Positions 4,002-59,975 of a stretch of DNA of 64,000 bases are shown here, in pieces. The translations under genes and the position numbers were made by a program. The DNA comes from Trypanosoma brucei (lineage: Eukaryota): positions 2,016,001 to 2,080,000 of the forward strand of contig CP000070.1 of assembly GCA_000002445.1 (NCBI GenBank), written 5' to 3'. Numbering within the stretch: the stretch's first letter is position 1; each line of letters opens with the position of its first letter. The notes below the pieces were generated by a model. It saw only the letters and a program-made list of their open reading frames with translations, had not been told where the DNA came from and ran no database searches.

Positions 4002-4497
4002 GCAGCAGAAGCGCAGGACCAAGTAAGCACAGGAAACGAGGAAGTCTGAAAAAAGCAAAAAGAAAAAACAACAACAACAAAAGAAGAATTGAAAGGGGCT
4101 TTGATGCGACAGTTTCGGGGAAATCAGTTTCTCTCTCTTTCTCTTTCTATATTTTTATTTTTATTAAAAAAATCGTCTTCTATTTTCCATTTTTCAAACA
4201 TGTGTTGCGCGGCCACTTATATAATAAAATTACTCAGTTTATTTTAATGTGTCTTGACCCTAATATCGTCTTCCTATTCCTTCTTCTTCTCTTTCTTGCT
4301 TGAATCCCCGTTTGTTTAATCGAAACATTCCATTATTTACCCCAGCTAATATTTGTGTTCAATGCCAAGCTTGCGAGACCTTGAATTCACCACACTGCCG
4401 ACTTTTTCTTCCCCACACTCCATTCGACCGTCACGCAATCATGTAAAGAAATGATTCAAAAAGAAAATAAATTACCAAATGTTGCTTTTTTTTTTTT

Positions 4498-16457: not shown

Positions 16458-19237
16458 CTACGGTGTATCTACCGCAGTGGCGGCGCAGCACACATCAACC
16501 AAAGAATCAGAGAGAAGAGAATGTGTGACAGTAGTGAATGTGGAATGAAGGGGAAGTTTGACAACAACAACAGTGAAATATTACACATGTAAAACAGTTT
16601 GCGAGTAGCCCTGTTGTGGAAAGAAAAGAGGGTACACCGCCCCACACAACACGATATGTCAGCACGCAGTGCAACGGGGAGGGGAATCCGAATAACACTA
16701 CAACGGAAGCACATCACGTGCAATGACAAATATCATCCTTGATGAAACAGGTGACGGTAACATCTCCTCACTTTTCCATAGGAGTACTGTCTCGTTTACT
16801 CATCTTCCACTTGCTCACTTCGATATTAAGATGTGTGAGAAAACCAACCCAACCCAAGGGCAGCATTTCAGTCTCCTTCACAATGACTATCCATCCCACA
16901 ACGCGCCGCTTTTCCATCCCGAAGTCCGGAAGATCGCCGTTACTTCGTAGTGCTTATTGTGCCAACTCCTCACCACCGCAACAGATAATGTGTAAAACGA
17001 TGCCAAGGAAGAACCAACAGAGGTGTAGCGAAGTAAATTGACACACCCAAGCACAAACATATAGCAATTAGGATCAGCTGACGGTATGGCAAACCAAGGG
17101 ACCATGGCTGCCACCAACACACGTCAACTCGTTACCAACCGTGACGATTCTTAGCGGACTCGAGCACCACGACAGGCGTACGCACTGTGTGGATCTTCGG
17201 CGGTATCGGCATGTGGTCGCAGACAATCTCCTTGCAGTCAGTGAGTGTGCATGGGACACCGATTATATCATCCAAGCGTATTGAGCCACACCGTTCCAGC
17301 AGTAACCTCCCAATGGCCTTTTGGGACGCCAGCTTCTTGAGGCCCTCCGCTGCAATAGGGATGGCGCAGAGTCTCAGAACGCAAGACCGGATGGCACTTT
17401 TGTCGGCACTGATTTTTTCGAGTAACTCGCAGTCACTCAAACTCAACTCCTCGAGAGTCTTTATGGCAAATACAGGATCAACGTGTGTCAAGTGCTTGGC
17501 GTTTCTCACACATAGCGACCGCAGTGCTTCACACCGCGAGAGGTCCTCAATTTCCTTATTCCCCACGAAGGGACCCTCGAGTATCAACTTGCTGAGCTCC
17601 GGCAGCGAGGCGATGGCAGCAAATTCGGAGACGCTGCGCAGCCCACAAATATACAATTCCCTCAGTTTCTTCGGCGATGCCAACTTCGATACGTTCAGCT
17701 CCCCACCACAGTACCAGAGTCGAAGGCACGTGAGATTCGTGGCCGACTCACAAATGGTTTCCAATGTGGTGGTGGAAGCAGACCCGCTACACAACCCGAG
17801 GGTCTCCAATGGAGATCTCCGCCCGGGGAACACCACCTCGGGTGAGTCATCCAAAAACAGCCTGCGTAGATTCCGCAGGGATGCGATGGCCTTAGAAGTC
17901 TTTTTACTGAGTGTCGAGCAGAATCGCAGGTCGACTTCGCTCAGGGATGTGCTGTACAGCTTTCCCACACATTCATCAGTCACCGCAGTAGCCCGCAATA
18001 GGAGCTTCTCCAGCGGTGGCGCACAGTCCACAGGGCCAACAATTCTTGCACGACTGCATAGGCTGAGGTCCAACACCTTCAGCGACCTCAGGTTGGTCAA
18101 TGGGCTTATGTCAACAATTTCCTTGTTCCCGCTGAGGATCACCTCCTCGAGCGTAGTGAATGCTGATAGTGCCTTCACATCGGCATCCGTTACACTGCTA
18201 TTCGTCAGGCGCAACACACGAAGTAACGGCAGCTCGGTTCCCCACTCGAACGTAGAACGAACACCCACATTGTCAAGACATAACTCCACCAATTTCTTGC
18301 AGTTTTTCAGTGAGATCTTGCTATGCACCGCCGAGCAATCCCCAAGCCGCAGCACCTTTAACGACACACAATCATGAAAATACTCGACAAGTCCATTGCC
18401 AACGATAAGGGAGGTTCCGGTAATAACCAATCGTCTGAGAATTGGCCACGTCAGTGTGTCAGTGAAGGCATTCATGTTGGGACAGTTCTCAATGGTGATG
18501 CTATCGAGAAACAGGGCATTCCCTAAGAATTTGGCATCCTGTAACATCGAGATATTCTTCATTACAATCTCACGCAGTTTCTCAAGGGACTCCACACCTT
18601 TCTCCCATTCGTTATCCAGCCGTGTACCATGCAGGATAAGCGTTTGGAGGCAGGGGAATTTACCGATACACGACATGTTGGCTACAGCACCCGGCCCGAT
18701 TTCCAACAGGTATAACCCTTGATTGCTGAGTAACTCGAGGTCCAGGCGTCCACAACACCGTCGGAGGCGCAATTCTCCCACATCGCCCTTTAGTGATGAG
18801 AGTTCTTTCAGATTAAACCCCGGGTCGTCGACAACAATCACGTCTGCGGGGTCATCACATTCAAGTGGTGCGTTCTTATCGCAGTTTATAACTGCCTTCC
18901 ACGTGACTGGTCGTCTCCGATATTCATCATACTCTTCCCGCAGCTTTTCGTGTTCCGCTGCCACCATATGGACATGATTGCGCAGTTCTGCGACCTCCTC
19001 CCGCAGCTTCTCCACATCTTCATTGGTTACCATTTGTTCCCCACCTTCAGAGCCGAGTCGCTTCACCATCGCGCCTCCCCCTTTGCCTTTTGTATTTTTG
19101 GTGAGGGAAAGAGTGTGGATTGTGTAAAAAGGTGGAAAGGGCGATTTGAGTGACGTAAGAAAGGAAGGCTTGGGGAAGAAGTGGAGCTGCACACCCAGCG
19201 ACTTTGGACAATACAAACGGGTGTAACACTGTGCTGA
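16297..19237. repeat. segmental duplication block A, copy 1 (LRR gene, its 3' flank, and the 5' end of the downstream gene)
   Basis: About 2.94 kb, near-identical to 43918-46858. The six-frame ORFs are pairwise identical (16366..16548 = 43987..44169, 17187..18377 = 44808..45998, etc., with single substitutions). Homology ends abruptly at ...gtgtaacactgtgctga (19237 / 46858). Confidence 0.85.
17132..19069 (-). CDS. leucine-rich repeat protein, cysteine-containing LRR type (LRRP/ESAG8-like), copy 1
   Basis: About 20 tandem 23-25-aa LRRs of the L..L.L..C..ITD..L form (e.g. LRSLKVLDLSLCSRARIVGPVDCAPPLEKLLL, LTNSSVTDADVKALSAFTTLEEVILSGNKEIVDISPLTNL), preceded by a coiled coil (EDVEKLREEVAELRNHVHMVAAEHEKLREEYDEYRR). 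The track ORF extends to 19363. Start is placed at MVKRLGSE (19069) because the upstream ORF differs between the two copies and reads like a pyrimidine-rich 5'UTR. Confidence 0.65.
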   Translation of the reverse strand: MVKRLGSEGGEQMVTNEDVEKLREEVAELRNHVHMVAAEHEKLREEYDEYRRRPVTWKAVINCDKNAPLECDDPADVIVVDDPGFNLKELSSLKGDVGELRLRRCCGRLDLELLSNQGLYLLEIGPGAVANMSCIGKFPCLQTLILHGTRLDNEWEKGVESLEKLREIVMKNISMLQDAKFLGNALFLDSITIENCPNMNAFTDTLTWPILRRLVITGTSLIVGNGLVEYFHDCVSLKVLRLGDCSAVHSKISLKNCKKLVELCLDNVGVRSTFEWGTELPLLRVLRLTNSSVTDADVKALSAFTTLEEVILSGNKEIVDISPLTNLRSLKVLDLSLCSRARIVGPVDCAPPLEKLLLRATAVTDECVGKLYSTSLSEVDLRFCSTLSKKTSKAIASLRNLRRLFLDDSPEVVFPGRRSPLETLGLCSGSASTTTLETICESATNLTCLRLWYCGGELNVSKLASPKKLRELYICGLRSVSEFAAIASLPELSKLILEGPFVGNKEIEDLSRCEALRSLCVRNAKHLTHVDPVFAIKTLEELSLSDCELLEKISADKSAIRSCVLRLCAIPIAAEGLKKLASQKAIGRLLLERCGSIRLDDIIGVPCTLTDCKEIVCDHMPIPPKIHTVRTPVVVLESAKNRHGW

Positions 19238-22135: not shown

Positions 22136-22460
22136 CTCCCACGGAACAAGAAGACAACAAGGTATTCGCGCCGGTCCTGTAATGCGTCTCCACTGCTCAA
22201 ATGGCGTCTCACACATGACCCAGTGCAATCGTGTGCACATGAACAACTGGTGTCAATCAGATATTCAGAAGGAAAAATCAAGAGGCCCCGCTTCAGAGGT
22301 TGGTAAATAATATTTTTCATAAGGATGTCTCGCAACTCTCGGACTGTGTGGCGCGGCTGCGGCGTAGAGGAACAGTCATGCATGCAGGACAATCAGCTAC
22401 GGGAATGAATACCTCCTCTACGGGTGCTGGCAAGCATCTTACTGATGGGACAAACATGCA
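22136..22460. repeat. duplication block B, copy 1 (kinesin last ~48 codons plus ~180 bp 3' flank)
   Basis: About 325 bp, near-identical to 43585-43910. ORFs 22132..22392(-) and 43582..43845(-) encode the same 86 aa, and 21804..22193(-) and 43431..43646(-) share their first 18 aa. Homology starts at ctcccacggaacaagaag. Confidence 0.8.
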
Positions 22461-40392: not shown

Positions 40393-42567
40393 TTATCGGT
40401 AGTCCCTGTAGTGATCAGGTTTACGCCGCTTCGCTCCTACACCTCTTTCACCCCTTTGCCATGGCAGTCCTTTTTCTGCTGGTGGCTGCTGCTGCTGCTC
40501 ATCCGACACTGCGATCGCGGATGCGTGCTGTATTTTGCTTCGTACCGTGCGCGAGAACCATTTATTTGAGCCTGTGTTGGAGGCATCAGTGCCGCTACTA
40601 CCATTAACAACAACGATATCGTTGGTGTTGTTATTATTATGGTTTTCACTGACGTTACCCCTACGTTGTTGCTTCACTGCTGAGCCAGTTGTACCGTTTC
40701 CTACTGAAGTCCCACTAGCGTAGCGATGGCCGTTATTAACGCCGTTACCAACGGTGTCACAACTTACACCGGCGCCTCCAACACTACCGGTCACAGAGGT
40801 CTTTAAATCTTTCTTGAATGGATCCACACAACTTTGCCCATTGGTGTGGTCGAAGTTGTGAGGGCGTGGCGCGGAAGAGGAAGAGCCATCAACAACGTAT
40901 TGACCTTTTGTAGTAACCAGCGAGCCTCCATCCATGCGGACGGAATTTCCAAATGACGAGAAGCCATTAGCTACGGTACCCGACGCCCCCACCATTGTCG
41001 CGCATGCCGATGCCGCAGTAACAGAGCTTGAAGCTGCTGCGGCAGCTACGCTGTGGTCAGTGCCAAGTTCTCGACTGTTACGATTGGCAATGCCAAACTG
41101 CTGCTGCTGTTGTTGTTGTTGCTGACGGAAGTCTACCTTCTTGTCCATACAAGCCTCTCCACTCCTGTTGATCATCACTGGTGTGGTCATCTGGTACATT
41201 TGGCGACCGTATATGGTAGGCACCAATACAGCAGAACAGCCATAACCGTTAATCCCGTTGCTCTCCGAAAGGTAAAACTGGCGGCTCCTTTCTCGAATTC
41301 GGTTCAGGAAAATCCGATCGCTCTGTTCCATGCGCTGGGCCCGTCGTGCGAGGTTTGACTCGAGCCCACATTTCCAGGGACGGAGGTGTTCAGCCCAAAA
41401 GCGGGCCCCAAACTCCCGTAGCGCTACCTCGTTCTGTGCGCTAACGTCCTCTCCAACGCAGTCATTGTTGCTGCTGACCTCCACTTCGGCAAGTTCCTTA
41501 ACGAGCCGCCTCATGAGTCTCGCTAGCGTTTCATAGTCCTCGTCATCTATCCACAGATCCCACCCTAGCACTGAACAGAAGCGCAGCTCGAGTTTGTTCA
41601 TCTCCGATAGTTTAATACCACCAAGAAAACTATAATACCTATTGTCGAAGAACCGATCTTCACGCATCTTAGCACTGAGCATAGCGCTGGTGATCATGAG
41701 GCGGTGCACGTTATAGTACGTAACGGGGTGGGAAATGGTAAAAGAATACTTGAGCAGCATAATGAGGCTTACCAGAAGCGTCTCCCCACTGAAGGAACCC
41801 CTCAACCTGAAGCGCTGGGTATAGGCAGCTATTGACGTCCCAGGAATCGAGGAGGAATGGAAATCTGTTGTGAGAAGCGGCTCCGATGAGTTTTCCTCGC
41901 ATAAGCTCTCCAAGAAAAGCACGAGGCCCCTGCATACTGTGTCCAGTTCAATTGGAAGCGTCACAGCTCTCTTCTCTCCATCAGCATTATCATCCCCGTT
42001 GACAACACCATTACTATCGTGGCCATCAGCAGGACGGCCATCACCATCTGGTGCAATAAACCCACTGCCTTTCGTCGTGTCACGTCCCCCCGCAACTTCG
42101 TTGTTTTCGTGGCCACACTTTTGCCCCAGTTCATCTCGTGCTTCCTCCTCTTGCCCACACGAAGGAGATAATCCGTTCACTGCACCCCTCTCATCCACAG
42201 CACCACTAGCGGCACTTGTGTCGCTGTTGTTGTTGTTTTTAACCCCTTTGTTGCACACCACTTCGGTGTTATTACGATTGTCGTCGCTACTACCTATAAG
42301 GGCTACGTGCCTACCTTTATCATCATTACCATTGCTCGTGCAGCTACTACAATTTGAATTAATGTGGGCGACTGTTGTGACATCGTGAGCAGTCCCTGTC
42401 CTTGCTCGTTTTACCTTTTTATGCATTTCATGATTACGATGGTAATCACATGCATCGTCCTCGCCGTCGTTATCATTGATATTGTCCAGCATGTCGGTGT
42501 GTATGTTGTCTCGCTGTGGCGAAAGGGGCTTCCACGAATTAGAAACACCACAGGCGTGTGGATTCAT
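40393..42567 (-). CDS. PHO80-like cyclin
   Basis: Cyclin box of the PHO80/PCL class: LVSLIMLLKYSFTISHPVTYYNVHRLMITSAMLSAKMREDRFFDNRYYSFLGGIKLSEMNKLELRFCSVLGWDLWIDDEDYETL. It is flanked by long Asn/Asp/Ser/Gly-rich low-complexity N- and C-terminal regions, including a Q10 run. Confidence 0.65.
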   Translation of the reverse strand: MNPHACGVSNSWKPLSPQRDNIHTDMLDNINDNDGEDDACDYHRNHEMHKKVKRARTGTAHDVTTVAHINSNCSSCTSNGNDDKGRHVALIGSSDDNRNNTEVVCNKGVKNNNNSDTSAASGAVDERGAVNGLSPSCGQEEEARDELGQKCGHENNEVAGGRDTTKGSGFIAPDGDGRPADGHDSNGVVNGDDNADGEKRAVTLPIELDTVCRGLVLFLESLCEENSSEPLLTTDFHSSSIPGTSIAAYTQRFRLRGSFSGETLLVSLIMLLKYSFTISHPVTYYNVHRLMITSAMLSAKMREDRFFDNRYYSFLGGIKLSEMNKLELRFCSVLGWDLWIDDEDYETLARLMRRLVKELAEVEVSSNNDCVGEDVSAQNEVALREFGARFWAEHLRPWKCGLESNLARRAQRMEQSDRIFLNRIRERSRQFYLSESNGINGYGCSAVLVPTIYGRQMYQMTTPVMINRSGEACMDKKVDFRQQQQQQQQQFGIANRNSRELGTDHSVAAAAASSSVTAASACATMVGASGTVANGFSSFGNSVRMDGGSLVTTKGQYVVDGSSSSAPRPHNFDHTNGQSCVDPFKKDLKTSVTGSVGGAGVSCDTVGNGVNNGHRYASGTSVGNGTTGSAVKQQRRGNVSENHNNNNTNDIVVVNGSSGTDASNTGSNKWFSRTVRSKIQHASAIAVSDEQQQQPPAEKGLPWQRGERGVGAKRRKPDHYRDYR

Positions 42568-43240
42568 ACCGGCGGCAGCGCTGACAGCGTCCTAAGCGGG
42601 AATGTCGCAACAGGCTGAACAGAAAACACTAGTTTGCGTAAGCCCGTCCACTCGGTCCCCTTCTCTCTCTTTTTTTTTTAAATCTTAAAAAGAGAATAAT
42701 TCCTACTATCTTCTCCCCCTTACCTATCACAGCGTCTCCTGAGTCAGGGCCTCTACCGTGTCTTACTTTATTACAAACTCAACTTATTCACCTACAACCC
42801 AAATGACACTACCACCGCAACTTTCCTTTATTTTTCAAAAGCTTTCCTTATTTATAATATTTGCTACCGTGTTCACTAGTTACTACGCTCCCGCGCTTGA
42901 GCGACTGCAAGTCCTGCGTATCCCGATCACCCCTTAAGCGAGTGCTAGAGAAGGAACCGAGGAAAATAAATATTTGTGAATTTGTACACACACAAGTGCA
43001 GACGGACGTAAGGACAAGACCGGATATGTTGGCGTGTAGTGGCAAAAAAAATAAATAAATAAAAATAATGAAACCCACCCGTCCCATCTTGTTACGGCCG
43101 GAGTGGACGTTACCCTTGTGACAGTGACGCGCGCAACAAATGGAAACACAAACCGTGCTGCACTATGAAGAGAAGAGGAAGCATACCGCGATCCGTCCCC
43201 CCTTTTCCCAATGGGGAAAAGGTGTGAGAATTGAGTGGAT

Positions 43241-43248
43241 GGAAAACG
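43241..43248 (-). terminator. RNA polymerase III T-run terminator immediately 3' of tRNA-Ala
   Basis: On the minus strand the tRNA 3' end is followed directly by CGTTTTCC. A run of 4 or more T residues right after a tRNA is the canonical Pol III terminator. Confidence 0.5.
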
Positions 43249-43320
43249 TGGACGAGTAGGGGATCAAACCCTAGGCCTTCCGTATGCGAAACGGATGCTC
43301 TACCACTGAGCTACACGCCC
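43249..43320 (-). tRNA. tRNA-Ala: tRNA-Ala (anticodon CGC)
   Basis: Folded by hand from the reverse complement: GGGCGTG TA GCTC AGTGGTA GAGC A TCCGT TTCGCAT ACGGA AGGCC TAGGG TTTGATC CCCTA CTCGTCC A. Acceptor stem pairs at 6 of 7 positions and includes the G3:U70 Ala identity pair. D-stem GCTC/GAGC. Anticodon stem TCCGT/ACGGA with loop TTCGCAT (anticodon CGC). T-stem TAGGG/CCCTA with loop TTTGATC. Discriminator A73. No encoded CCA. Confidence 0.8.
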
Positions 43321-43584
43321 CGTAGTGCAATCGGTGCGCTGCATTCGTTTACCGTTGCGTGGCTACAAGCCATAACCGCCACAAGCCACAACATAAAGTG
43401 CGGGGGAGACACAACCGATGCTATCCATCATTACCACCTCCATTCCTTCCCCACCCATCTTGGTTTTGCACACGTGGCTTCTACGGAAGGCTTTTCCACC
43501 ACATATACGGCTGCATTTGCATCGAAAGCATGCGTTGTTGGGTACCAGGCAGCTGCGTATTCTCCAGTTAGTAATGCAATTTCA

Positions 43585-43910
43585 CAAACTCCCACGGAAC
43601 AAGAAGACAACAAGGTATTCGCGCCGGTCCTGTAATGTGTCTCCACTGCTCAAATGGCGTCTCACACATGACCCAGTGCAATCGTGTGCACATGAACAAC
43701 TGGTGTCAATCAGATATTCAGAAGGAAAAATCAAGAGGCCCCGCTTCAGGGGTTGGTAAATAATATTTTTCATAAGGATGTCTCGCAACTCTCGGACTGT
43801 GTGGCGCGGCTGCGGCGTAGAGGAACAGTCATGCATGCAGGACAATCAGCTACGGGAATGAATACCTCCTCTACGGGTGCTGGCAAGCATCTTACTGATA
43901 GGACAAACAT
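43585..43910. repeat. duplication block B, copy 2 (fused to block A copy 2)
   Basis: See copy 1. In this copy the kinesin-derived codons are detached from any motor domain. Confidence 0.8.
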
Positions 43911-44078
43911 GCGTGGAACACATTCAGCTACCATCCTTTTGAGGTAAGCAAGCGACATACAAGGAAACTTTACCCGTGAGTTTGTAGTGATCCACTGCAC
44001 TGTTGGTGCCCTATTTTTGACTCTTCTTTGTTTTGTAGTCCCCTCTATCGTGGACACACCTTGCTTTCCACTCAACAA
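43770..44078 (-). pseudogene. chimeric gene fragment: first 53 codons of the 1298-aa Ser-rich gene fused in frame to the last ~49 codons of the kinesin
   Basis: The 102-aa ORF starts MLSGKQGVSTIEGTTKQRRVKNRAPTVQ.ITTNSRVKFPCMSLAYLKRMVAEC, which matches the N-terminus of the CDS at 16457. It ends ...FVPSVRCLPAPVEEVFIPVADCPACMTVPLRRSRATQSESCETSL, which is identical to the C-terminus of the kinesin CDS ending at 22317. The fusion lies exactly at the B|A duplication junction (about 43910-43918). Confidence 0.55.
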
Positions 44079-46858
44079 CTACGGTGTATCTACCGCAGTG
44101 GCGGCGCAGCACACATCAACCAAAGAATCAGAGAGAAGAGAATGTGTGACAGTAGTGAATGTGGAATGAAGGGGAAGTTTGACAACAACAACAGTGAAAT
44201 ATTACACATGTAAAACAGTTTGCGAGTAGCCCTGTTGTGGAAAGAAAAGAGGGTACACCGCCCCACACAACACGATATGTCAGCACGCAGTGCAACGGGG
44301 AGGGGAATCCGAATAGCACTACAACGGAAGCACATCACGTGCAATGACAAATATCATCCTTGATGAAACAGGTGACGGTAACATCTCCTCACTTTTCCAT
44401 AGGAGTACTGTCTCGTTTACTCATCTTCCACTTGCTCACTTCGATATTAAGATGTGTGAGAAAACCAACCCAACCCAAGGGCAGCATTTCAGTCTCCTTC
44501 ACAATGACTGTCCATCCCACATCACGCCGCTTTTCCATCCCGAAGTCCGGAAGATCTCCGTTACTTCGTAGTGCTTATTGTGCCAACTCCTCACCACCGC
44601 AACAGATAATGTGTAAAACGATGCCAAGGAAGAACCAACAGAGGTGTAGCGAAGTAAATTGACACACCCAAGCACAAACATATAGCAATTAGGATCAGCT
44701 GACGGTATGGCAAACCAAGGGACCATGGCTGCCACCAACACACGTCAACTCGTTACCAACCGTGACGATTCTTAGCGGACTCGAGCACCACGACAGGCGT
44801 ACGCACTGTGTGGATCTTCGGCGGTATCGGCATGTGGTCGCAGACAATCTCCTTGCAGTCAGTGAGTGTGCATGGGACACCGATTATATCATCCAAGCGT
44901 ATTGAGCCACACCGTTCCAGCAGTAACTTCCCAATGGCCTTTTGGGACGCCAGCTTCTTGAGGCCCTCCGCTGCAATAGGGATGGCGCAGAGTCTCAGAA
45001 CGCAAGACCGGATGGCACTTTTGTCGGCACTGATTTTTTCGAGTAACTCGCAGTCACTCAAACTCAACTCCTCGAGAGTCTTTATGGCAAATACAGGATC
45101 AACGTGTGTCAAGTGCTTGGCGTTTCTCACACATAGCGACCGCAGTGCTTCACACCGCGAGAGGTCTTCAATTTCCTTATTCCCCACGAAGGGACCCTCG
45201 AGTATCAACTTGCTGAGCTCCGGCAGCGAGGCGATGGCAGCAAATTCGGAGACGCTGCGCAGCCCACAAATATACAATTCCCTCAGTTTCTTCGGCGATG
45301 CCAACTTCGATACGTTCAGCTCCCCACCACAGTACCAGAGTCGAAGGCACGTGAGATTCGTGGCCGACTCACAAATGGTTTCCAATGTGGTGGTGGAAGC
45401 AGACCCGCTACACAACCCGAGGGTCTCCAATGGAGATCTCCGCCCGGGGAACACCACCTCGGGTGAGTCATCCAAAAACAGCCTGCGTAGATTCCGCAGG
45501 GATGCGATGTCCTTAGAAGTCTTTTTACTGAGTGTCGAGCAGAATCGCAGGTCGACTTCGCTCAGGGATGTGCTGTACAGCTTTCCCACACATTCATCAG
45601 TCACCGCAGTAGCCCGCAATAGGAGCTTCTCCAGCGGTGGCGCACAGTCCACAGGGCCAACAATTCTTGCACGACTGCATAGGCTGAGGTCCAACACCTT
45701 CAGCGACCTCAGGTTGGTCAATGGGCTTATGTCAACAATTTCCTTGTTCCCGCTGAGGATCACCTCCTCGAGCGTAGTGAATGCTGATAGTGCCTTCACA
45801 TCGGCATCCGTTACGCCGCTATTCGTCAGGCGCAACACACGAAGTAACGGCAGCTCGGTTCCCCACTCGAACGTAGAACGAACACCCACATTGTCAAGAC
45901 ATAACTCCACCAATTTCTTGCAGTTTTTCAGTGAGATCTTGCTATGCACCGCCGAGCAATCCCCAAGCCGCAGCACCTTTAACGACACACAATCATGAAA
46001 ATACTCGACAAGTCCATTGCCAACGATAAGGGAGGTTCCGGTAATAACCAATCGTCTGAGAATTGGCCACGTCAGTGTGTCAGTGAAGGCATTCATGTTG
46101 GGACAGTTCTCAATGGTGATGCTATCGAGAAACAGGGCATTCCCTAAGAATTTGGCATCCTGTAACATCGAGATATTCTTCATTACAATCTCACGCAGTT
46201 TCTCAAGGGACTCCACACCTTTCTCCCATTCGTTATCCAGCCGTGTACCATGCAGGATAAGCGTTTGGAGGCAGGGGAATTTACCGATACACGACATGTT
46301 GGCTACAGCACCCGGCCCGATTTCCAACAGGTATAACCCTTGATTGTTGAGTAGCTCGAGGTCCAGGCGTCCACAACACCGTCGGAGGCGCAATTCTCCC
46401 ACATCGCCCTTTAGTGATGAGAGTTCTTTCAGATTAAACCCCGGGTCGTCGACAACAATCACGTCTGCGGGGTCATCACATTCAAGTGGTGCGTTCTTAT
46501 CGCAGTTTATAACTGCCTTCCACGTGACTGGTCGTCTCCGATATTCATCATACTCTTCCCGCAGCTTTTCGTGTTCCGCTGCCACCATATGGACATGATT
46601 GCGCAGTTCTGCGACCTCCTCCCGCAGCTTCTCCACATCTTCATTGGTTACCATTTGTTCCTCACCTTCAGAGCGGCTTCGCTTCGCCATCGCGCCTCCC
46701 CCTTTGCCTTTTGTATTTTTGGTGAGGGAAAGAGTGTGGATTGTGTAAAAAGGTGGAAAGGGCGATTTGAGTGACGTAAGAAAGGAAGGCTTGGGGAAGA
46801 AGTGGAGCTGCACACCCAGCGACTTTGGACAATACAAACGGGTGTAACACTGTGCTGA
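43918..46858. repeat. segmental duplication block A, copy 2
   Basis: See copy 1. Preceded directly by block B copy 2. The junction sequence is ...acaaacatgc|gtggaa|cacattcagctaccatcc... Confidence 0.85.
44753..46690 (-). CDS. leucine-rich repeat protein, cysteine-containing LRR type (LRRP/ESAG8-like), copy 2
   Basis: About 99 % amino-acid identity to copy 1 over 646 aa, with a handful of substitutions (MAKRSRSEGEEQ vs MVKRLGSEGGEQ, SLRNL, SVTPL). Intact reading frame. Start at 46690 (cat at 46688-46690). The track ORF extends to 46963 into copy-specific upstream sequence. Confidence 0.65.
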   Translation of the reverse strand: MAKRSRSEGEEQMVTNEDVEKLREEVAELRNHVHMVAAEHEKLREEYDEYRRRPVTWKAVINCDKNAPLECDDPADVIVVDDPGFNLKELSSLKGDVGELRLRRCCGRLDLELLNNQGLYLLEIGPGAVANMSCIGKFPCLQTLILHGTRLDNEWEKGVESLEKLREIVMKNISMLQDAKFLGNALFLDSITIENCPNMNAFTDTLTWPILRRLVITGTSLIVGNGLVEYFHDCVSLKVLRLGDCSAVHSKISLKNCKKLVELCLDNVGVRSTFEWGTELPLLRVLRLTNSGVTDADVKALSAFTTLEEVILSGNKEIVDISPLTNLRSLKVLDLSLCSRARIVGPVDCAPPLEKLLLRATAVTDECVGKLYSTSLSEVDLRFCSTLSKKTSKDIASLRNLRRLFLDDSPEVVFPGRRSPLETLGLCSGSASTTTLETICESATNLTCLRLWYCGGELNVSKLASPKKLRELYICGLRSVSEFAAIASLPELSKLILEGPFVGNKEIEDLSRCEALRSLCVRNAKHLTHVDPVFAIKTLEELSLSDCELLEKISADKSAIRSCVLRLCAIPIAAEGLKKLASQKAIGKLLLERCGSIRLDDIIGVPCTLTDCKEIVCDHMPIPPKIHTVRTPVVVLESAKNRHGW

Positions 46859-52787: not shown

Positions 52788-55700
52788 TCAAGCAGCACGC
52801 ATAGATTTGGGGAATCTGAAGGCCGGACCACCGTGGGTCTCGGTAGGGTACGGGTGGTAATATTCACCGGGACCCACGCCATTGCCTGCTTCAAACTCAG
52901 CGAAGCGATCGGCAGAAGCGAATGTGAAGGCAAGTACGGTGGGTCTTGCGTCAACGGGGTGGTGATATTCACCGGGACCGGGTGCGTCCTCCTGGGCAGA
53001 TTCCAGCGTCATAGAGCGTGGCCCCCTGCCGAAGGTAAATGCGGGGCCGGGTTTTAAGACGACTGGGCCACCTGTTAGATATGCCCCCGGTCCTGGAACA
53101 TCTTCTGCTCTGCACTGCACCTCCCGCTCCGCTGCCCCAAACGGTACGGCCTTTTGGTTTAGTGTGGAAGGGATAACGTACGCTGCAGGCCCGGGTGTTG
53201 CGTTCACCCGCACTTCAAATACGGCTGTCGAATCAACGGTGGGCAATGGACCGAAGGAAACTGCACGAGTTGTTTCGGTAGGTCGTGGACAATAGGCACC
53301 GGGGCCAGGGACATCTTCCGTTTGGCGGCCATCGCCGTACGTTGGTTTCCCTTTCAGAGTGAAGGCGGGACCTGAATGGCATTGCTGCATGTATCGATCC
53401 GTGTCGTAACTTCCGGGCCCAGGTAAACCATCACTGTTCTCGGCAGCGCCCGATGGCTTCCCCTTCACCGTAAAAGCTGGTCCCGGTTTAAACTGTTCTG
53501 CGTAGCTGCTTACGTTGTAGCTTCCGGGACCGGGGACGTCGGCGTCGACCCCGTCGCTGGTCACTTGTTTTCCTTTGAGCGTGAAGGCAGGGCCCGACTG
53601 AAATTGTTCCGTATAGCGGCTAACGTCGTAGCTACCGGGGCCAGGTACATCGGCGCTACCTTCAACTTGGGATGCTTTTCCTTTCAAAGTAAAGGCTGGG
53701 CCCGCCTGACACAGTTCCATGTAGCGATTGATATCGTAACTGCCAGGTCCCGGAGCATCAATACCATTCTCGCCATTATACGTGGCCTTGCCCTTTAGGG
53801 TAAACGACGGCCCTGCGTGGTGTTGTTCGAGGTAACGATTCGGATCGTAGCTCCCCGGACCTGGAGCGTCAGCTTCGTTGTCGTTTTGCGCTGATTTTCC
53901 CTTCAAAGTAAATGAAACCCCCGACTGACACTGCTTCAAATATCGATTCACATCGTAGCTTCCCGGCCCAGGAACGTCGCCATCGGCACTGTTACTGTTA
54001 AACGCATCCCTCCCTCGGAGAGTGAAGGCAGGACCCGCTTGACACCGCTCCAAGTACTGACTGGCATCATAGCTTCCAGGACCAGGGATATCAGGCCCCT
54101 TCTGCCCAGTGTCGCTTGGTTTCCCCCTTAACGTGAATGAAGGACCTGCCTGAGACTGTTCCATACAGCGATTGATATCATAACTGCCAGGTCCCGGAGC
54201 ATCAATACCATTCTCGCCATTATACGTGGCCTTGCCCTTTAGGGTAAACGACGGCCCTGCGTGGTGTTGTTCGAGGTAACGATTCGGATCGTAGCTCCCC
54301 GGACCTGGAACGTCAGCTTCGCTGTCATTGCCATTACACGCACCTTTTCCTCGAAGTGTGAACGCGGGTCCTGACTGAAACTGCTCCAAGTATCGGTTCG
54401 CATCATAACTACCGGGGCCGGGAATGCCAGCACTGTTTTCGTCAACGCAGGTTGGTTTTCCCTTCAACGAGAAGGCGGGGCCCATTTGGCACCTTTCCAA
54501 GTAGCTACTCGCGTCATAGCTTCCGGGACCGGGGACGTCAGCATCATGTCCGCCGACGGGGGCTGCTTTCCCTCTCAATGAGACCGACGGGCCGGCTTGG
54601 CATTGTTCGAGATAGCGATTTGGGTCGTAGCTTCCCGGACCAGGAACATCACCATTGCCACTGCTGCCGTTAAATGTACTTTTCCCTCGAAGAGTAAACG
54701 CACGACCCGCCCTACTTTCATCTATGTAGCGACTTGCATCGTAGCTCCCAGGACCAGGAAGGTCACCACCGTTTTCATTCTGTCCTGGTTTACTTTTAAG
54801 AGTGAATGCGGGCCCAGCTTGATATGCGTTCAGGTAACGGTTCGTATCGTAGCTACCGGGCCCCGGTACATCGGCATCTACCGTGGGGGCTTTCATGCGC
54901 TCTTCAGCACCAAAGGAATAGGTGTTGCCCGCTGTGGTGTTCCAGGTAGAGGGGATATCATAATCACCAGGTCCAGGACGCGATGAAGCATCATTCAGCT
55001 CTGCCGGCGAATGGCGCGGTGCCTGTGGGAACGACACACCATCCTTCGTACCTCTGGCCTCTGCGGGACTGTACGACGCCGGACCTGGACTCTCTCCCAC
55101 TGCGCCACCGCTGAGCCCAGGGAAGCGCTCGCTCGTGAAACGCATCGCTACGCCACCGTCCACAATACTCCCAAGCCCTCCACTGCTGACCTCGTAGTGA
55201 CCTGGTCCTGGCTGTTCTCTGAGATCGTTATTGTTGGCACCAACCCCTGTGGCAACACGGGGCGCTCGACCAATAAAGGGCCCTGAGGTCCGTTGCGCCG
55301 ATTGAATGCTGTATGCACCGGGCCCAGGTCCTTCGGTTTGGGCAGCTTGGCCATCTGGGAACCGCGCAGCCTTGACAAATGAAGTGGCCCCGCTCCCACC
55401 ATCGACCGCAGGAAATGCGGGCTGCACCGAGTACGTGCCAGGGCCTGGAAGTTCGGCTTTTTGCATATCAACCGCCATGCGATCCTGGGCAGCAGCCCGT
55501 CCGATGGAATACGCTATCCCCTCACGGTTTTCCACCCTTAGGTCGTAAGAACCTGGCCCTGGGGCATCTTCAATGCCACCCGTGTTTGCTACGTCCCTTT
55601 GTGCGGTGCCAAAAATAACGGAAGGTGTATCCGTCGGCAGCGCAGGGTTGTAGTGTCCAGGTCCCGGATGGTTTTGTCCACTGAGGTTGTTCAAACCTCC

Positions 55701-58700
55701 GCTTGTTTGGCGCGGCCCAATACCAAAGAGAGCTGCTGTTGCCGTTAGTGAGGGTTCTTGTGGGCTATATGTTCCTGGTCCGGGCCCATCCGTTCCTAGA
55801 GTGAGCGAAGCGTTTCTTCCTCCCATGGGGAAAGAGTATGCTTGGGAAGAGTCCCATTGCGGATGGTGGGGCATGTACTGCCCGGGTCCAGGGGCTTCGT
55901 CCTCCCCTCTCTCGGTTGCAAAGCGAGGACTTATGGGAAAGGCGGAAACAACGGCTCGGCGATGAGATAAATCTTCCCCAGTGTAGTCGTACTGCCCAGG
56001 CCCAGGGACGTCGCTTCCCTCAAGACTGGGCGCCTCCCGGGTAGCTGTGGGGAAGCGATAGACAGGTGCCGTCGGTGACGTTGTACGCGACGCCCCAACA
56101 TTATACGTTCCTGGTCCCGGCCCTTCCTCATGGTTCAAAGAACCCAAGGCACGTGGTTCGACACCGAACCGTGTGCCTGTAGCTGTGAGTGTGGGGATGG
56201 TGACATCGTAGGCTCCGGGGCCGGGTGTGGTTCCATCGTTCTCGGTAGCATCCTGTGGCATGCGAGGTTCCACTCCAAAAGAGTAGGCTGCTCCACCTAC
56301 CTTGGTGCTTAGGTCCTCCGGATGATATTGGCCAGGCCCGGGAAGAAGTGCGTGTTCTCGTTCCTTCAGATCGAGGACACGTGGCCCCCTGCTGAACACA
56401 GGAACACCAGCAGCCGCTGTGAGGGTTCCACGATCTTCTATTGAATAGTATCCAGGTCCCGGAGTGACGTCGTTGTCACCACCTGCAGCAGCCCCCGCAA
56501 CATTGTCGAACCGGGGTGCTGTTGTGAAGGAGACCGGACCGACTGGTGACGCGCCTCCAGTGGTCGGGTCTAACGAATACGCTCCGGGTCCCGGGATGCT
56601 CCAACTGTCTTCATGAGACTGTAGACGAGGTGCCATGCCAATTATGGCGGAGCGCGCACAAGAGGCCTTGCTATCGTGGGGATTGTAGTGACCCGGACCA
56701 ACCGCCAACTCGCCGTGCCGCTCCTCCTGTATTCGTCCATCCGCGGCGCTACCGAACGTGGTGTGAAAGGTGTGCGGGACGGGAAGGATAACTTCGTATG
56801 ATCCTGGACCGACACCGGGTCGCATAAGCGCTTCACGCTCTTCTGGTGATGTCGGGTGTTGCGGCGACGAACCAAAGACTACACCTGGGATCGTGCGTCC
56901 ATGTGGGTCTTTTGGAGCATACGCCCCAGGACCAGGGACAGCCTCTGCGGGATCAGCCCGCTGGGACGGTTTGCCACAAGATATGCCGAAGTTCACGACA
57001 TTAGTTGGGGTTGGGCTCTGCCGAGTGTCATATGCTCCAGGACCCGGTACCTCATTAAGTGTATCGGCAGCAAACCTGGGACCGGCGCTCCACACTGCCC
57101 CCGATGCAGGACCTTTAGGCACTTGGGGATCGTATGAACCTGGTCCAATCCCGTCGTTGCCATCGTGGTTCCCCACGGAGTGGTCGATGGTTAAAAGGCG
57201 TGGCTCTGTGCCAAACACTGCCGCCCCCCTGTACTCCGGAGGTCTCTCTATTGTGTAGGCCCCTGGTCCTGGGACATCTTGACGATCTTTTTCCCCACCG
57301 CTAGTCTGAAACCTTGCAGCTTCACCAATCACAACGGCCCGGGTGTTCGGCATCGGATCTTGTGGATCGTATTCTCCGGGTCCGGGAACTGACACACTGG
57401 GCTCTGGGCCGTCAAGTTTCTGACCGATTGAAAAAGACGGGCTATTCTTCGGCATGGCGATCTCGTACGCACCCGGGCCTGGTTTTTTTGCAGCTTCATC
57501 CTCGTTGAATGGTAATTCTCGTGGGGCACTTCCGAAGACAGCGGCACGGCCCCTCGTTCCCACATCCCCACAATCAGCATCGTAGTGTCCTGGTCCGGGG
57601 GTGGCCACCACACCGGCAGCCCCTTCAGCACCCGGTTCGCTACTCTCCGCAAATCGCGGTGCGGCGGCATTTAATAGAGGCGACACGACCCGTGGCTCCT
57701 GTACAGTGGTAAGTGCTGTGTAAGTGCCTGGCCCCGGCACATCAGCACAGCAGTCGAAGCCAAGCGTTGATACTCGTTGTGCGGTACCCATGATGGCAGA
57801 CCGCACGGGACTGGTCTGTCTCTCTGTCTCGTAAGTTCCCGGTCCGGGGAGCGTCTCAGCAACTTTCGTCCCTTCGTGCAGCACACGCGGCGCTGTAGGG
57901 AATAAGGGCGCAGAGGAATGCGAATGTTTTAGCTCATATGTGGAAACACTGTACTCACCAGGTCCTGGGGTAGGATGGGGCTCGAGAGGTGCCGAGGGCG
58001 ACTCCGACACAAGCCACCGTGGACCGGTAGACATTTGTGGCAATTCGTAGTGGCCGGGACCAGGCGTTGTATCCACCCGCTCTGCTGGTCGGCGTCCCAT
58101 AAGGTAGGCTGGACCACTTTCCCTCCTGACGGGTTCATATGCCCCAGGTCCAGGTACTTCATGAGGGGAAGTGCGCTCCTTGCTCCACGGAGATCCACCA
58201 CGTCTTACGTTCGTTATCACGGCACTGCGACCACTGACGGCTGTGCACCTGTCGCTTGGCACAGAAGCGGTATCGTACGTGCCTGGACCTGGTACGTTCG
58301 CTGGTTCAGAAGGTGGTGAAGAAGTGAGTGGCACTCGTCCATAACGTAGTAACTTCGCACGACCAAATGAGAAAGCAGGAGGGCTCCTCCGCCGCGCGTC
58401 GGAGAGTGTCGCGGCTTCTGGGTGATATTCGCCAGGTCCTGGTATGAGCACCGCCTCCTTTGTGGGAAGTATAGAAAGCTGACGACGACTACTCGATAGG
58501 GTGCGGGCACTTTTCTTTGATGAGGTTTCTGTCATACTCTTTTCCTTGACGTCGTACGCTCCGGGCCCGGGAAAATTATTGACAGCATGCAACTTTCGTT
58601 CTGCCCGTCCAATTAGCACCCCCCCAGTGGCCGTTTTCCCGGGGGACAATGCAGACATACCTAATTCACCAGACACATCGTACGCCCCAGGACCCGGTGA

Positions 58701-59975
58701 CACCCCCGCCGAGGCACCATCAACTCGTTTTGTTGGTTTCAAGTATGAAGGCACGCTGCCATGTACGTCTGAGTCTCCCACTGCCCGCTGACCGCTTCGG
58801 ACTTCCTCCTCACTTCTGCCGCGCCTTCGTTGACTGGAGCGGTGCTTCGGATGTGTATTAGTGTCAGATGTGTCTACAGCGAAAATAGTGCACCGAGGTG
58901 AAATTCCGAATACGGCACCCCGATTGGAGAGCCGTCCTACAAGCCGCGGCGACACCACCGAGGGAGATTTCTGAAAACTATCATGTGCCTTTGTCGCACC
59001 GCTTTTTTTGTTGCTATTTTTCTTTGTGCTGCTGCCGCAAGGTTGAGCAGCCTCACTGCCGGAGTTGCTGCGGCTGCTGGTGTGATCGTCATTGTCCCCC
59101 TCTGTACACACTGTTCTCAGTGACTGACAAGGGCAGTCGGACGCGTGAGCCGCGGGATTCTTCGGTGCGTCGATATCAGGCATTTGCTTCCAATAACACT
59201 GACAGAGTATTTCCATTTGTCTCTTGAGTAGCTCATTCTTCTCCGCCTTCTGTTCCACCACCTCAACCCCCGTGTGATGTGGACCGCTTGTGTGACTTTT
59301 CTTACTATGCCCAGCTTCAGCACCCCGTCCGCGGTAGCAGTCCCCACTGTCGTTATTGCTGTCATCCGCAATGAAGTACGATCCGGGCCCTGGTGACGTA
59401 TCTTTTCGTATCGGTTCAGACATCCCCTTCCGACCACTTCCGAATGTAGATGGGGGGAAGCGATGCTGTGAACTTCTAGTGACCGTAGCAGCATTAACCA
59501 CCCGACCAGTCGGAGTGCTATAAGGTATCTTCACTTTCTCCGCTGATGCCTCATGAGGCCGACGGCACTTTGTAGCAGCCAACTGGGAGTTGTGACGACG
59601 AACGTGCTGGCATCCGGAAGACGCCTTGGGGCCCATGGACGTGCACTCGTGAGCACACGAGCACCCACATTGAGATGCGCAAGTCTCTGCAGCTTCGTCA
59701 GGCTCCTTCGTCTCCGTTGCTGGAAGTGCGCATCTTGTCTCTGGTTTTGGTGGTGCCGCTGATGCGCAAGAGGACGCAGCCTGCGTACCTCGCTGCTTGA
59801 AGTGGTGAGCTGCCCCGCGCGTGGGAGCCCCTTTTCTGGCTGCAGCCGCTTCCTTCTCCATTATCATATCGACGGAGGCCAAAATACTCGCGTACATAAC
59901 ATCTACTTGCGCTTGGACATCGTTCACATCGACATCATTCTCCTTCACTAGCGACAACTTACTGTACGTATCCAT
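52788..59975 (-). CDS. giant PGPG-repeat protein (sperm-tail PG-rich repeat / STPGR-type), 2395 aa, probable flagellar/cytoskeletal protein
   Basis: More than 60 degenerate ~35-aa repeats, each with the core (D/E)(V/A/I)PGPG(S/A/T/E/H)Y. In the C-terminal third they become very regular: YLEQxQAGPxFTLKGKxxxxxxxxxDVPGPGSYDxNR. The PGPGxY core is the defining motif of STPGR repeats. Confidence 0.7.
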   Translation of the reverse strand: MDTYSKLSLVKENDVDVNDVQAQVDVMYASILASVDMIMEKEAAAARKGAPTRGAAHHFKQRGTQAASSCASAAPPKPETRCALPATETKEPDEAAETCASQCGCSCAHECTSMGPKASSGCQHVRRHNSQLAATKCRRPHEASAEKVKIPYSTPTGRVVNAATVTRSSQHRFPPSTFGSGRKGMSEPIRKDTSPGPGSYFIADDSNNDSGDCYRGRGAEAGHSKKSHTSGPHHTGVEVVEQKAEKNELLKRQMEILCQCYWKQMPDIDAPKNPAAHASDCPCQSLRTVCTEGDNDDHTSSRSNSGSEAAQPCGSSTKKNSNKKSGATKAHDSFQKSPSVVSPRLVGRLSNRGAVFGISPRCTIFAVDTSDTNTHPKHRSSQRRRGRSEEEVRSGQRAVGDSDVHGSVPSYLKPTKRVDGASAGVSPGPGAYDVSGELGMSALSPGKTATGGVLIGRAERKLHAVNNFPGPGAYDVKEKSMTETSSKKSARTLSSSRRQLSILPTKEAVLIPGPGEYHPEAATLSDARRRSPPAFSFGRAKLLRYGRVPLTSSPPSEPANVPGPGTYDTASVPSDRCTAVSGRSAVITNVRRGGSPWSKERTSPHEVPGPGAYEPVRRESGPAYLMGRRPAERVDTTPGPGHYELPQMSTGPRWLVSESPSAPLEPHPTPGPGEYSVSTYELKHSHSSAPLFPTAPRVLHEGTKVAETLPGPGTYETERQTSPVRSAIMGTAQRVSTLGFDCCADVPGPGTYTALTTVQEPRVVSPLLNAAAPRFAESSEPGAEGAAGVVATPGPGHYDADCGDVGTRGRAAVFGSAPRELPFNEDEAAKKPGPGAYEIAMPKNSPSFSIGQKLDGPEPSVSVPGPGEYDPQDPMPNTRAVVIGEAARFQTSGGEKDRQDVPGPGAYTIERPPEYRGAAVFGTEPRLLTIDHSVGNHDGNDGIGPGSYDPQVPKGPASGAVWSAGPRFAADTLNEVPGPGAYDTRQSPTPTNVVNFGISCGKPSQRADPAEAVPGPGAYAPKDPHGRTIPGVVFGSSPQHPTSPEEREALMRPGVGPGSYEVILPVPHTFHTTFGSAADGRIQEERHGELAVGPGHYNPHDSKASCARSAIIGMAPRLQSHEDSWSIPGPGAYSLDPTTGGASPVGPVSFTTAPRFDNVAGAAAGGDNDVTPGPGYYSIEDRGTLTAAAGVPVFSRGPRVLDLKEREHALLPGPGQYHPEDLSTKVGGAAYSFGVEPRMPQDATENDGTTPGPGAYDVTIPTLTATGTRFGVEPRALGSLNHEEGPGPGTYNVGASRTTSPTAPVYRFPTATREAPSLEGSDVPGPGQYDYTGEDLSHRRAVVSAFPISPRFATERGEDEAPGPGQYMPHHPQWDSSQAYSFPMGGRNASLTLGTDGPGPGTYSPQEPSLTATAALFGIGPRQTSGGLNNLSGQNHPGPGHYNPALPTDTPSVIFGTAQRDVANTGGIEDAPGPGSYDLRVENREGIAYSIGRAAAQDRMAVDMQKAELPGPGTYSVQPAFPAVDGGSGATSFVKAARFPDGQAAQTEGPGPGAYSIQSAQRTSGPFIGRAPRVATGVGANNNDLREQPGPGHYEVSSGGLGSIVDGGVAMRFTSERFPGLSGGAVGESPGPASYSPAEARGTKDGVSFPQAPRHSPAELNDASSRPGPGDYDIPSTWNTTAGNTYSFGAEERMKAPTVDADVPGPGSYDTNRYLNAYQAGPAFTLKSKPGQNENGGDLPGPGSYDASRYIDESRAGRAFTLRGKSTFNGSSGNGDVPGPGSYDPNRYLEQCQAGPSVSLRGKAAPVGGHDADVPGPGSYDASSYLERCQMGPAFSLKGKPTCVDENSAGIPGPGSYDANRYLEQFQSGPAFTLRGKGACNGNDSEADVPGPGSYDPNRYLEQHHAGPSFTLKGKATYNGENGIDAPGPGSYDINRCMEQSQAGPSFTLRGKPSDTGQKGPDIPGPGSYDASQYLERCQAGPAFTLRGRDAFNSNSADGDVPGPGSYDVNRYLKQCQSGVSFTLKGKSAQNDNEADAPGPGSYDPNRYLEQHHAGPSFTLKGKATYNGENGIDAPGPGSYDINRYMELCQAGPAFTLKGKASQVEGSADVPGPGSYDVSRYTEQFQSGPAFTLKGKQVTSDGVDADVPGPGSYNVSSYAEQFKPGPAFTVKGKPSGAAENSDGLPGPGSYDTDRYMQQCHSGPAFTLKGKPTYGDGRQTEDVPGPGAYCPRPTETTRAVSFGPLPTVDSTAVFEVRVNATPGPAAYVIPSTLNQKAVPFGAAEREVQCRAEDVPGPGAYLTGGPVVLKPGPAFTFGRGPRSMTLESAQEDAPGPGEYHHPVDARPTVLAFTFASADRFAEFEAGNGVGPGEYYHPYPTETHGGPAFRFPKSMRAA
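53725..53880. repeat. intragenic repeat within the PGPG-repeat gene, unit 1 of an identical pair
   Basis: A ~150 bp stretch (gcgattgatatc...taactgccaggtcccggagcatcaataccattctcgccattatacgtggccttgccctttagggtaaacgacggccctgcgtggtgttgttcgaggtaacgattcggatcgtagctccccggacctgga) recurs at 54169-54324. Neighbouring repeat units differ substantially at the DNA level. Confidence 0.75.
54169..54324. repeat. intragenic repeat within the PGPG-repeat gene, unit 2 of the identical pair
   Basis: See 53725-53880. The protein shows DVPGPGSYDPNRYLEQHHAGPSFTLKGKATYNGENGIDAPGPGSYDINR twice. Confidence 0.75.

Follow-up and report, generated by a model that had tools for sequence, protein, structure and literature searches.

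Trypanosome protein-coding genes stand in long units that are transcribed by Pol II, and a tRNA gene enclosed in such a unit raises the question of what it does to its surroundings: whether it stops or pauses Pol II, whether it serves as promoter for a divergent small RNA gene, and whether it is connected with the end of a DNA duplication nearby. The question applies to the one tRNA gene found in the 64 kb window of Trypanosoma brucei DNA analyzed here (the window being the whole stretch of 64,000 nucleotides), for which an earlier note, made from the sequence alone, had brought up all three roles. The gene was followed through its structure and flanking signals, its sister copy on chromosome 11, its position in the Pol II unit, published factor occupancy, the adjoining spacer, and the evolutionary history of the locus.

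Identity and Structure of the tRNA-Ala(CGC) Gene

ARAGORN called a single tRNA across the entire window, a minus-strand tRNA-Ala(cgc) at 43248-43320, and RF00005, the sole Rfam family to reach its gathering score within the 64 kb, matched 43249-43320 on the same strand with 63.2 bits, well over the gathering score of 29. The gene sequence is GGGCGUGUAGCUCAGUGGUAGAGCAUCCGUUUCGCAUACGGAAGGCCUAGGGUUUGAUCCCCUACUCGUCCA (43249-43320, minus strand). The supplement of Padilla-Mejia et al. (2009; PMC2695483) lists Tb07_tRNA_Ala_3 (Tb927.7.7175), anticodon CGC, on chromosome 7 at 2059249..2059320 complement, with a 3' flank (CGTTTTCCATCCACTCAATTCTCACACCTTTTCC) that matches the window exactly; since both the coordinates and this terminator flank agree, the tRNA gene in the window is Tb927.7.7175, an already annotated and known T. 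brucei gene, and the window spans 2,016,001-2,080,000 of TREU927 chromosome 7.

Tb927.7.7175 carries the alanine identity elements, namely the G3:U70 pair, A73 and the anticodon CGC. Its acceptor ends read GGGCGUG on the 5' side and CUCGUCC, followed by A, on the 3' side; the 6:67 pair formed between them is a U.U, flagged as non-canonical by Infernal. The T loop is UUUGAUC and has U instead of C at position 56, where C is near-universal among tRNAs. The same base lies in the internal promoter: the A box (TAGCTCAGTGG, tRNA positions 8-18) fits the consensus TRGCNNAGTGG and is intact, whereas the B box (GGTTTGATCCC) departs from the consensus GGTTCGANTCC, with its invariant C56, by the change C56 -> T. 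The description of the gene as a well-formed tRNA-Ala with G3:U70, A73 and a T4 terminator therefore stands as far as cloverleaf, identity elements and terminator are concerned, on the evidence of ARAGORN, the Rfam score and the sequence itself, but it does not extend to the U.U at 6:67 and the U56 of the T loop.

On the 3' side, an oligo-T Pol III terminator (a T4 run at 43243-43246, minus strand) begins 2 nt past A73, and a back-up T4 (43217-43220, minus strand), in the flank given in Additional file 2 of PMC2695483, follows 22 nt beyond the first. The back-up run is contained in a perfect 9 bp hairpin (CCTTTTCCC / GGGAAAAGG; 43201-43222, minus strand), located 27-48 nt downstream of the gene and kept in all three T. 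brucei subspecies; this hairpin produces the sole weak folding signal near Tb927.7.7175 (z = -2.5 for 43130-43249, minus strand). About 85 nt downstream of the tRNA, a polypyrimidine tract (TTCCTCTTCTCTTCA) followed by AG (43163-43180, minus strand) would, judged from its sequence, be a candidate trans-splice acceptor for CYC4, the next protein gene. A search for short repeats near the tRNA returned an inverted match of 9 nt that joins the tRNA 5' end to 43031-43039 and is at chance level.

A metagenomic pattern search for relatives of the kinetoplastid tRNA-Ala(CGC) gave 0 matches with the full-length pattern and two contigs with a shorter pattern. Both contigs are eukaryotic and carry tandem tRNA-Ala(CGC/AGC) genes (L009, positions 1993-2221; L010, positions 1526-1920), whose D and anticodon arms are nearly those of Tb927.7.7175; U6.U67 occurs in these genes too, and C56 is normal. 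Since U6.U67 is also present in these unrelated tRNA-Ala genes with a normal C56, it is not in itself a mark of decay.

The Second Ala(CGC) Gene on Chromosome 11

The T. brucei genome contains two Ala(CGC) genes, Tb07_tRNA_Ala_3 and Tb11_tRNA_Ala_1, which are 97% identical (70/72 bases) (PMC2695483). Among the few departures from consensus across three species, the same survey records "a T at position 5" of Box B in Tb07_tRNA_Ala_3, no other T. brucei tRNA gene being listed with T in place of the conserved C at this position; this is the C56U seen in the window sequence. The locus is catalogued there as a single-gene locus, without an associated small RNA. Tb11_tRNA_Ala_1 shares the anticodon and 97% of the sequence with Tb927.7.7175, yet its Box B position 5 is the consensus C, its terminator is a T6 and its 3' flank is a different one; it resides in a tRNA cluster (Ala-Arg-Phe) on chromosome 11 (3469847..3469918 in TREU927), at termination region sTTR_8, where it is bound by all factors discussed below. 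Since the window has a single tRNA-Ala copy and the whole genome two Ala(CGC) genes, copy number rules out a SINE-like or otherwise dispersed repeat, and the view that this is a gene rather than a tRNA-derived, SINE-like element is upheld.

Position Within the Pol II Unit

The minus strand carries every non-shadow ORF of at least 300 aa across the 64 kb, and Tb927.7.7175 is co-directional with all of these ORFs; the ORF map bears out the statement in the earlier note that the tRNA shares the strand of its flanking protein genes. The next protein gene downstream is CYC4 (Tb927.7.7170; 40393-42567, minus strand), whose ORF is 100% identical to the CYC2-like cyclin CYC4 of T. b. brucei TREU927 and whose ATG lies 681 bp from the tRNA 3' end. 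The upstream neighbor is the LRRP gene Tb927.7.7180, a paralogue of Tb927.7.7110, and the intergenic distance from this LRRP gene to CYC4 is 2185 bp. According to Aeby et al. (2010; PMC2943599), every T. brucei tRNA gene other than tRNA-Sec is situated in a region of 5 kb or more that is free of genes; located in a 2185 bp intergenic region, Tb927.7.7175 is an exception to this statement.

Pol III-Type Factors and Pol II Termination Regions

Statements that link trypanosomatid tRNA genes in general to Pol II termination, as made in the earlier note, are present in the literature. Of the T. brucei termination regions, 20 are found at tRNA or snRNA genes (Staneva et al., 2021), and approximately one third of the tRNA loci are found in convergent strand-switch regions (PMC2695483). 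No TFIIIC has been characterized in T. brucei (PMC5359979). The occupancy of individual tRNA genes is documented by the ChIP-seq survey of Staneva et al. (2021), which covers eight Pol III/termination-associated factors, including TBP, in bloodstream-form Lister 427. For Tb927.7.7175 it was read from the yes/no peak-overlap table of that study (Supplemental Table S8), which covers every tRNA gene and represents one strain and one life stage; the Box B sequence is that of TREU927, and the factor occupancy is that of the Lister 427 orthologue.

Table S8 lists the Ala cgc gene at Chr7_core 2057285-2057357 with "no" for TTR regions and "no" for TTR factors, and the Ala cgc gene of chromosome 11 with TTR region sTTR_8 and "yes" for factors (Staneva et al., 2021). 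In bloodstream-form cells, neither TBP nor any other of the eight factors was recorded at the Lister 427 orthologue of Tb927.7.7175 (Table S8), nor does this orthologue overlap a Pol II termination region in the same table. Only five tRNA genes in Table S8 are without any factor: the chromosome 7 Ala cgc gene, the two tRNA-Sec genes, and two odd-sized subtelomeric Chr11_3B entries; other solitary tRNA genes outside of termination regions are bound by at least TBP (Staneva et al., 2021). The two "no" entries argue against the proposal that Pol II pauses or terminates at this particular tRNA-Ala(CGC) gene, and in the published ChIP data, consulted through this table, no Pol II boundary is recorded at the locus and no Pol III-type complex is bound there. 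The tRNA genes that do mark Pol II termination regions (a tRNA gene on chr3 of L. major, and those at the 20 T. brucei TTRs) likewise occur among Pol II-transcribed genes; unlike them, Tb927.7.7175 overlaps no termination region and no factor, and is placed head-to-tail inside a unit, with no strand switch.

The Spacer Between the tRNA and the Duplicated DNA

The DNA on the 5' side of the tRNA (43321-43585) is unique within the window by self-BLAST, and the report of a unique 265 bp spacer next to a duplicated block is confirmed, with a length of 265-267 bp depending on how the block edge is defined. It had also been called ORF-free; short ORFs of up to 134 aa do cross it, but such ORFs are expected by chance. 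Rfam models found no match in the spacer on either strand at E<=10; a scan of 42600-44750 returned only the tRNA and two noise matches. Folding of the whole spacer is indistinct from that of its shuffled versions on either strand (plus, z = -0.25; minus, z = +1.21), and none of the sliding windows of 80 or 120 nt inside it reached z < -2. Comparison of T. b. brucei, T. b. equiperdum, and T. b. gambiense yielded substitutions at 4 of the 265 spacer positions (1.5%; 43562, 43497, 43356, and 43347), vs. 0 substitutions in the remainder of the 551 bp alignment; the surrounding 12 kb region is approximately 1.0-1.1% divergent. The spacer looks like ordinary intergenic DNA without sign of constraint. 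The suggestion that it could hold a small RNA finds no support in the covariance-model scan, in the folding analysis, in TBP peaks, or in the subspecies comparison, where divergence is at least at background.

Gene Order and Duplicated Blocks

In T. cruzi, T. rangeli, and T. conorhini, the corresponding gene order is a protein of ~1300 aa, CYC4, a dual-specificity phosphatase, a protein of ~550-600 aa, and Vta1, in agreement with T. brucei; a wyosine radical-SAM enzyme comes next in T. rangeli. The gap between the ~1300 aa gene and CYC4 measures 0.9-1.7 kb in these three species vs. 5.1 kb in T. brucei. In all three species this gap contains no LRRP gene, no tRNA detectable by ARAGORN, and no tRNA remnant at Rfam E<=1; alignment of the T. 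brucei intergenic DNA to the T. cruzi clade produced low-complexity matches only. The T. cruzi clade lacks at this position the LRRP copy, the kinesin fragment described below, the spacer, and the tRNA, which makes the tRNA part of a lineage-specific gene-order break. T. b. equiperdum and T. b. gambiense share the whole arrangement, T56 included, and the tRNA sequence is identical in these subspecies at 72/72 positions including T56, where ~0.7 changes would be expected in 72 bp at ~1% divergence. As an observation on the wider neighborhood, a 2395 aa ORF in the window (52788-59975, minus strand) is the counterpart of an upstream gene of ~1850-2070 aa with a faint SHIPPO-rpt (PF07004) match in T. 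cruzi and T. conorhini; inside this ORF, degenerate tandem repeats with spacings of 111, 222, and 333 bp occupy 53343-54758.

Read in the direction of transcription, the 5.1 kb gap upstream of CYC4 consists of 856 bp of unique DNA, a copied block A, a copied block B, the spacer, the tRNA, and 681 bp leading to CYC4; the copies were defined by self-BLAST of the 64 kb window. Block A (43919-46858, minus strand) is a copy of 16298-19237 with 99.4% identity and comprises the LRRP gene Tb927.7.7180, its 3' flank, and 13 codons that form the start of the gene lying downstream at the source locus. Block B (43586-43918, minus strand) is a copy of 22136-22459 (43589-43912, 99.1% identity) and comprises the last 143 nt of a kinesin CDS with 181 nt of 3' flank; at its edge, identity to the source begins at 43588, apart from a lone matching base at 43586.

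Structural RNA genes and gene-family expansion are reportedly found at breaks of trypanosomatid gene order. The closeness of this tRNA to a block edge carries little weight, since the non-duplicated intergenic DNA at the locus amounts to ~1.87 kb and a random insertion would fall within 265 bp of the tRNA in (2x265+72)/1874, or ~0.32, of cases, approximately 30% by chance; only one junction of copied blocks is near the tRNA. The lack of a Pol III complex, moreover, removes the mechanism that had been proposed for the duplication edge, for the gene in its current state.

The copied blocks have features of their own. Their joint creates an in-frame chimeric ORF of 62 aa (43770-43958, minus strand), which opens with the 13 codons (MSLAYLKRMVAEC) copied from the gene that lies downstream of LRRP-1, crosses the junction in three codons, and closes with the final 46 codons of the kinesin, the kinesin part being read in the kinesin's own frame and ending at the kinesin stop; since the copied stretch upstream should also carry the splice acceptor of that gene, a trans-spliced chimeric transcript running toward the tRNA is plausible. 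On the plus strand, the blocks follow each other in the order 22136-22459, then 16298-19237, which corresponds to the end of a 6.16 kb unit and then its start. This order is the signature of a tandem-duplication or circular-intermediate junction that was later copied 21-27 kb away; no clear microhomology was seen at the joint of blocks A and B.

The two LRRP copies of TREU927 (16298-19237 and 43919-46858) are 99.4% identical, above the identity of orthologous regions between subspecies (98.7-99.0%), and the loci of the other two subspecies also have the LRRP copy, the kinesin-fragment block, and the tRNA upstream of CYC4. Since the LRRP copies are closer to each other than subspecies orthologues are, although the duplication is common to the subspecies, the sequence comparison suggests gene conversion between them. 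The T. b. gambiense DAL972 chromosome 7 locus (L005, 3377-7809) has ~2.5 kb of extra DNA relative to TREU927, containing a truncated LRRP gene, a gap of 100 N (4463-4562), and a full LRRP gene with an upstream flank of the LRRP-1 type; the cause is either a longer or tandem copied block in this subspecies or a misassembly of the repeat.

Interpretation and Rival Readings

The reading that best accommodates these data, to which we assign a probability of roughly 60%, is that Tb927.7.7175 is a redundant, Pol III-disabled copy that forms no boundary and is read through by Pol II. The gene would be a redundant second Ala(CGC) copy beside the cluster gene on chromosome 11; its B box would have been disabled by the C56 -> T change, which affects a base that belongs to the promoter box and also pairs with G19 when the tRNA is folded. 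Consistent with this defect, neither TBP nor any other Pol III/termination-associated factor would assemble on the gene, Pol II would proceed past it without an annotated stop or restart, and the tRNA sequence would be transcribed along with the rest of the 2.2 kb intergenic stretch between LRRP and CYC4. Since there are no factors on the gene and no annotated Pol II stop or restart, it would be neither a unit boundary nor a small-RNA promoter. In this chain, we infer that C56T is the cause of the absent occupancy and that the gene is functionally redundant. Against the reading as a silent copy, Tb927.7.7175 may be a gene still in use, which would fit with its intact A box, its two T4 runs, and its perfect conservation among subspecies; the conservation, though, is a weak argument when only ~0.7 changes are expected in 72 bp at ~1% divergence.

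A gene still in use could also be served by Pol II. The precedent is set by the T. brucei tRNA-Sec genes of chromosome 9, whose transcription inside a polycistron is the work of Pol II and for which insertion into a polycistron suffices for expression (PMC2943599). By analogy, Tb927.7.7175 would be Pol III-silent, and some functional tRNA-Ala(CGC) with U56 would be cut by RNase P and 3' nucleases from the LRRP-CYC4 intergenic RNA of a Pol II precursor, an outcome that we regard as rather unlikely. The layout is that of the tRNA-Sec genes: co-directional orientation on the same strand as adjacent protein genes, a single Pol II unit in which the intergenic region is short (2185 bp at Tb927.7.7175, 1640 and 833 bp at the tRNA-Sec genes), a deficient internal promoter, and no boundary chromatin, which for Tb927.7.7175 is judged from the lack of overlap with an annotated termination region. 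The ChIP-seq entries are likewise shared, with "no TTR/no factors" status and no Pol III/termination-associated factor for Tb927.7.7175 and for both tRNA-Sec genes, and the cloverleaf and alanine identity elements are intact. The analogy has its bounds, however: Tb927.7.7175 encodes a canonical elongator and its deficiency is confined to a single B-box change, with the A box intact, whereas tRNA-Sec is without both consensus boxes; dependence on Pol II and a mature product, both shown for tRNA-Sec, would be predictions for Tb927.7.7175; and, unlike tRNA-Sec, it has a second gene copy of Pol III type elsewhere, the chromosome 11 gene, which is able to supply tRNA-Ala(CGC). The product may be unstable, given that the elbow pair G19-C56 is weakened by U56, and literature searches found no expression data for the U56 isodecoder. 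In its most far-reaching form, the analogy would make Tb927.7.7175 the first conventional elongator tRNA, and after tRNA-Sec the second tRNA, that the trypanosome matures from a Pol II polycistron, caught in transition between the two modes: the B box would be broken by C56T and TBP and Pol III factors lost, and the cloverleaf, the identity elements, and the position between poly(A) site and splice acceptor kept. We consider this form equally doubtful; if a U56 tRNA did come from a Pol II precursor, Pol II-driven tRNA synthesis would be extended beyond tRNA-Sec.

In line with the earlier note, an active Pol III gene would stop or pause Pol II, and fragility of the site, for which Pol III-replication conflict would account, would have fixed the duplication end 265 bp away. 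The 20 termination regions at tRNA or snRNA genes and the third of tRNA loci in convergent strand-switch regions lend this idea general credit, as do the intact A box and T4 terminators, the position of the tRNA adjoining a lineage-specific insertion, and the structural RNA genes and gene-family expansion that El-Sayed et al. 2005 (Science 309:404) reportedly described at gene-order breaks in trypanosomatids; but at this gene Table S8 has no termination region and none of the eight factors, the B box is without C56, the proximity is not significant (~0.32 for random insertion), and just one copied-block junction is near, so that we hold this account to be improbable. A further idea is that of a companion promoter, in which a divergent small RNA gene would begin on the plus strand near 43420, at ~100 bp from the 5' end of the tRNA. 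This arrangement is known in T. brucei, where U6 and tRNA-Thr are 100 bp apart in Table S8, with 7SL/tRNA-Lys for comparison, and is discussed in PMC2943599; plus-strand T4 runs are found at 43464-43467 and 43492-43495; like the tRNAs that accompany U-snRNA and 7SL genes in trypanosomes (Nakaar et al., 1994), Tb927.7.7175 has free upstream space of fitting size. It differs from them in having a mutated B box, no TBP, and no detectable divergent small RNA gene ~100 bp upstream: at ~95-105 bp from the tRNA 5' end no such gene was detected, the stretch near 43420 is pyrimidine-rich and unstructured, plus-strand windows of 80 and 120 nt from 43390 to 43510 had z-scores between -0.71 and +0.54, and Rfam (E<=10, either strand) gave no match. 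The absence of a TBP peak, the 1.5% spacer divergence among subspecies, and the catalogue entry as a single gene without small RNA (PMC2695483) also speak against a companion gene; the proposal is largely refuted, and a very small chance is all that we would leave to it.

Implications

As a catalogued gene next to an ordinary spacer, Tb927.7.7175 matters little in itself; its modest value is that of a natural control. It is the sole core, non-Sec tRNA gene of T. brucei that looks Pol III-silent and is co-directional in a short intergenic region. Since its mutated B box is paired with the absence of TBP and of termination factors, the locus suggests that it is the assembled Pol III complex, and not the mere tRNA sequence, that accompanies the stopping of Pol II at other tRNA loci.
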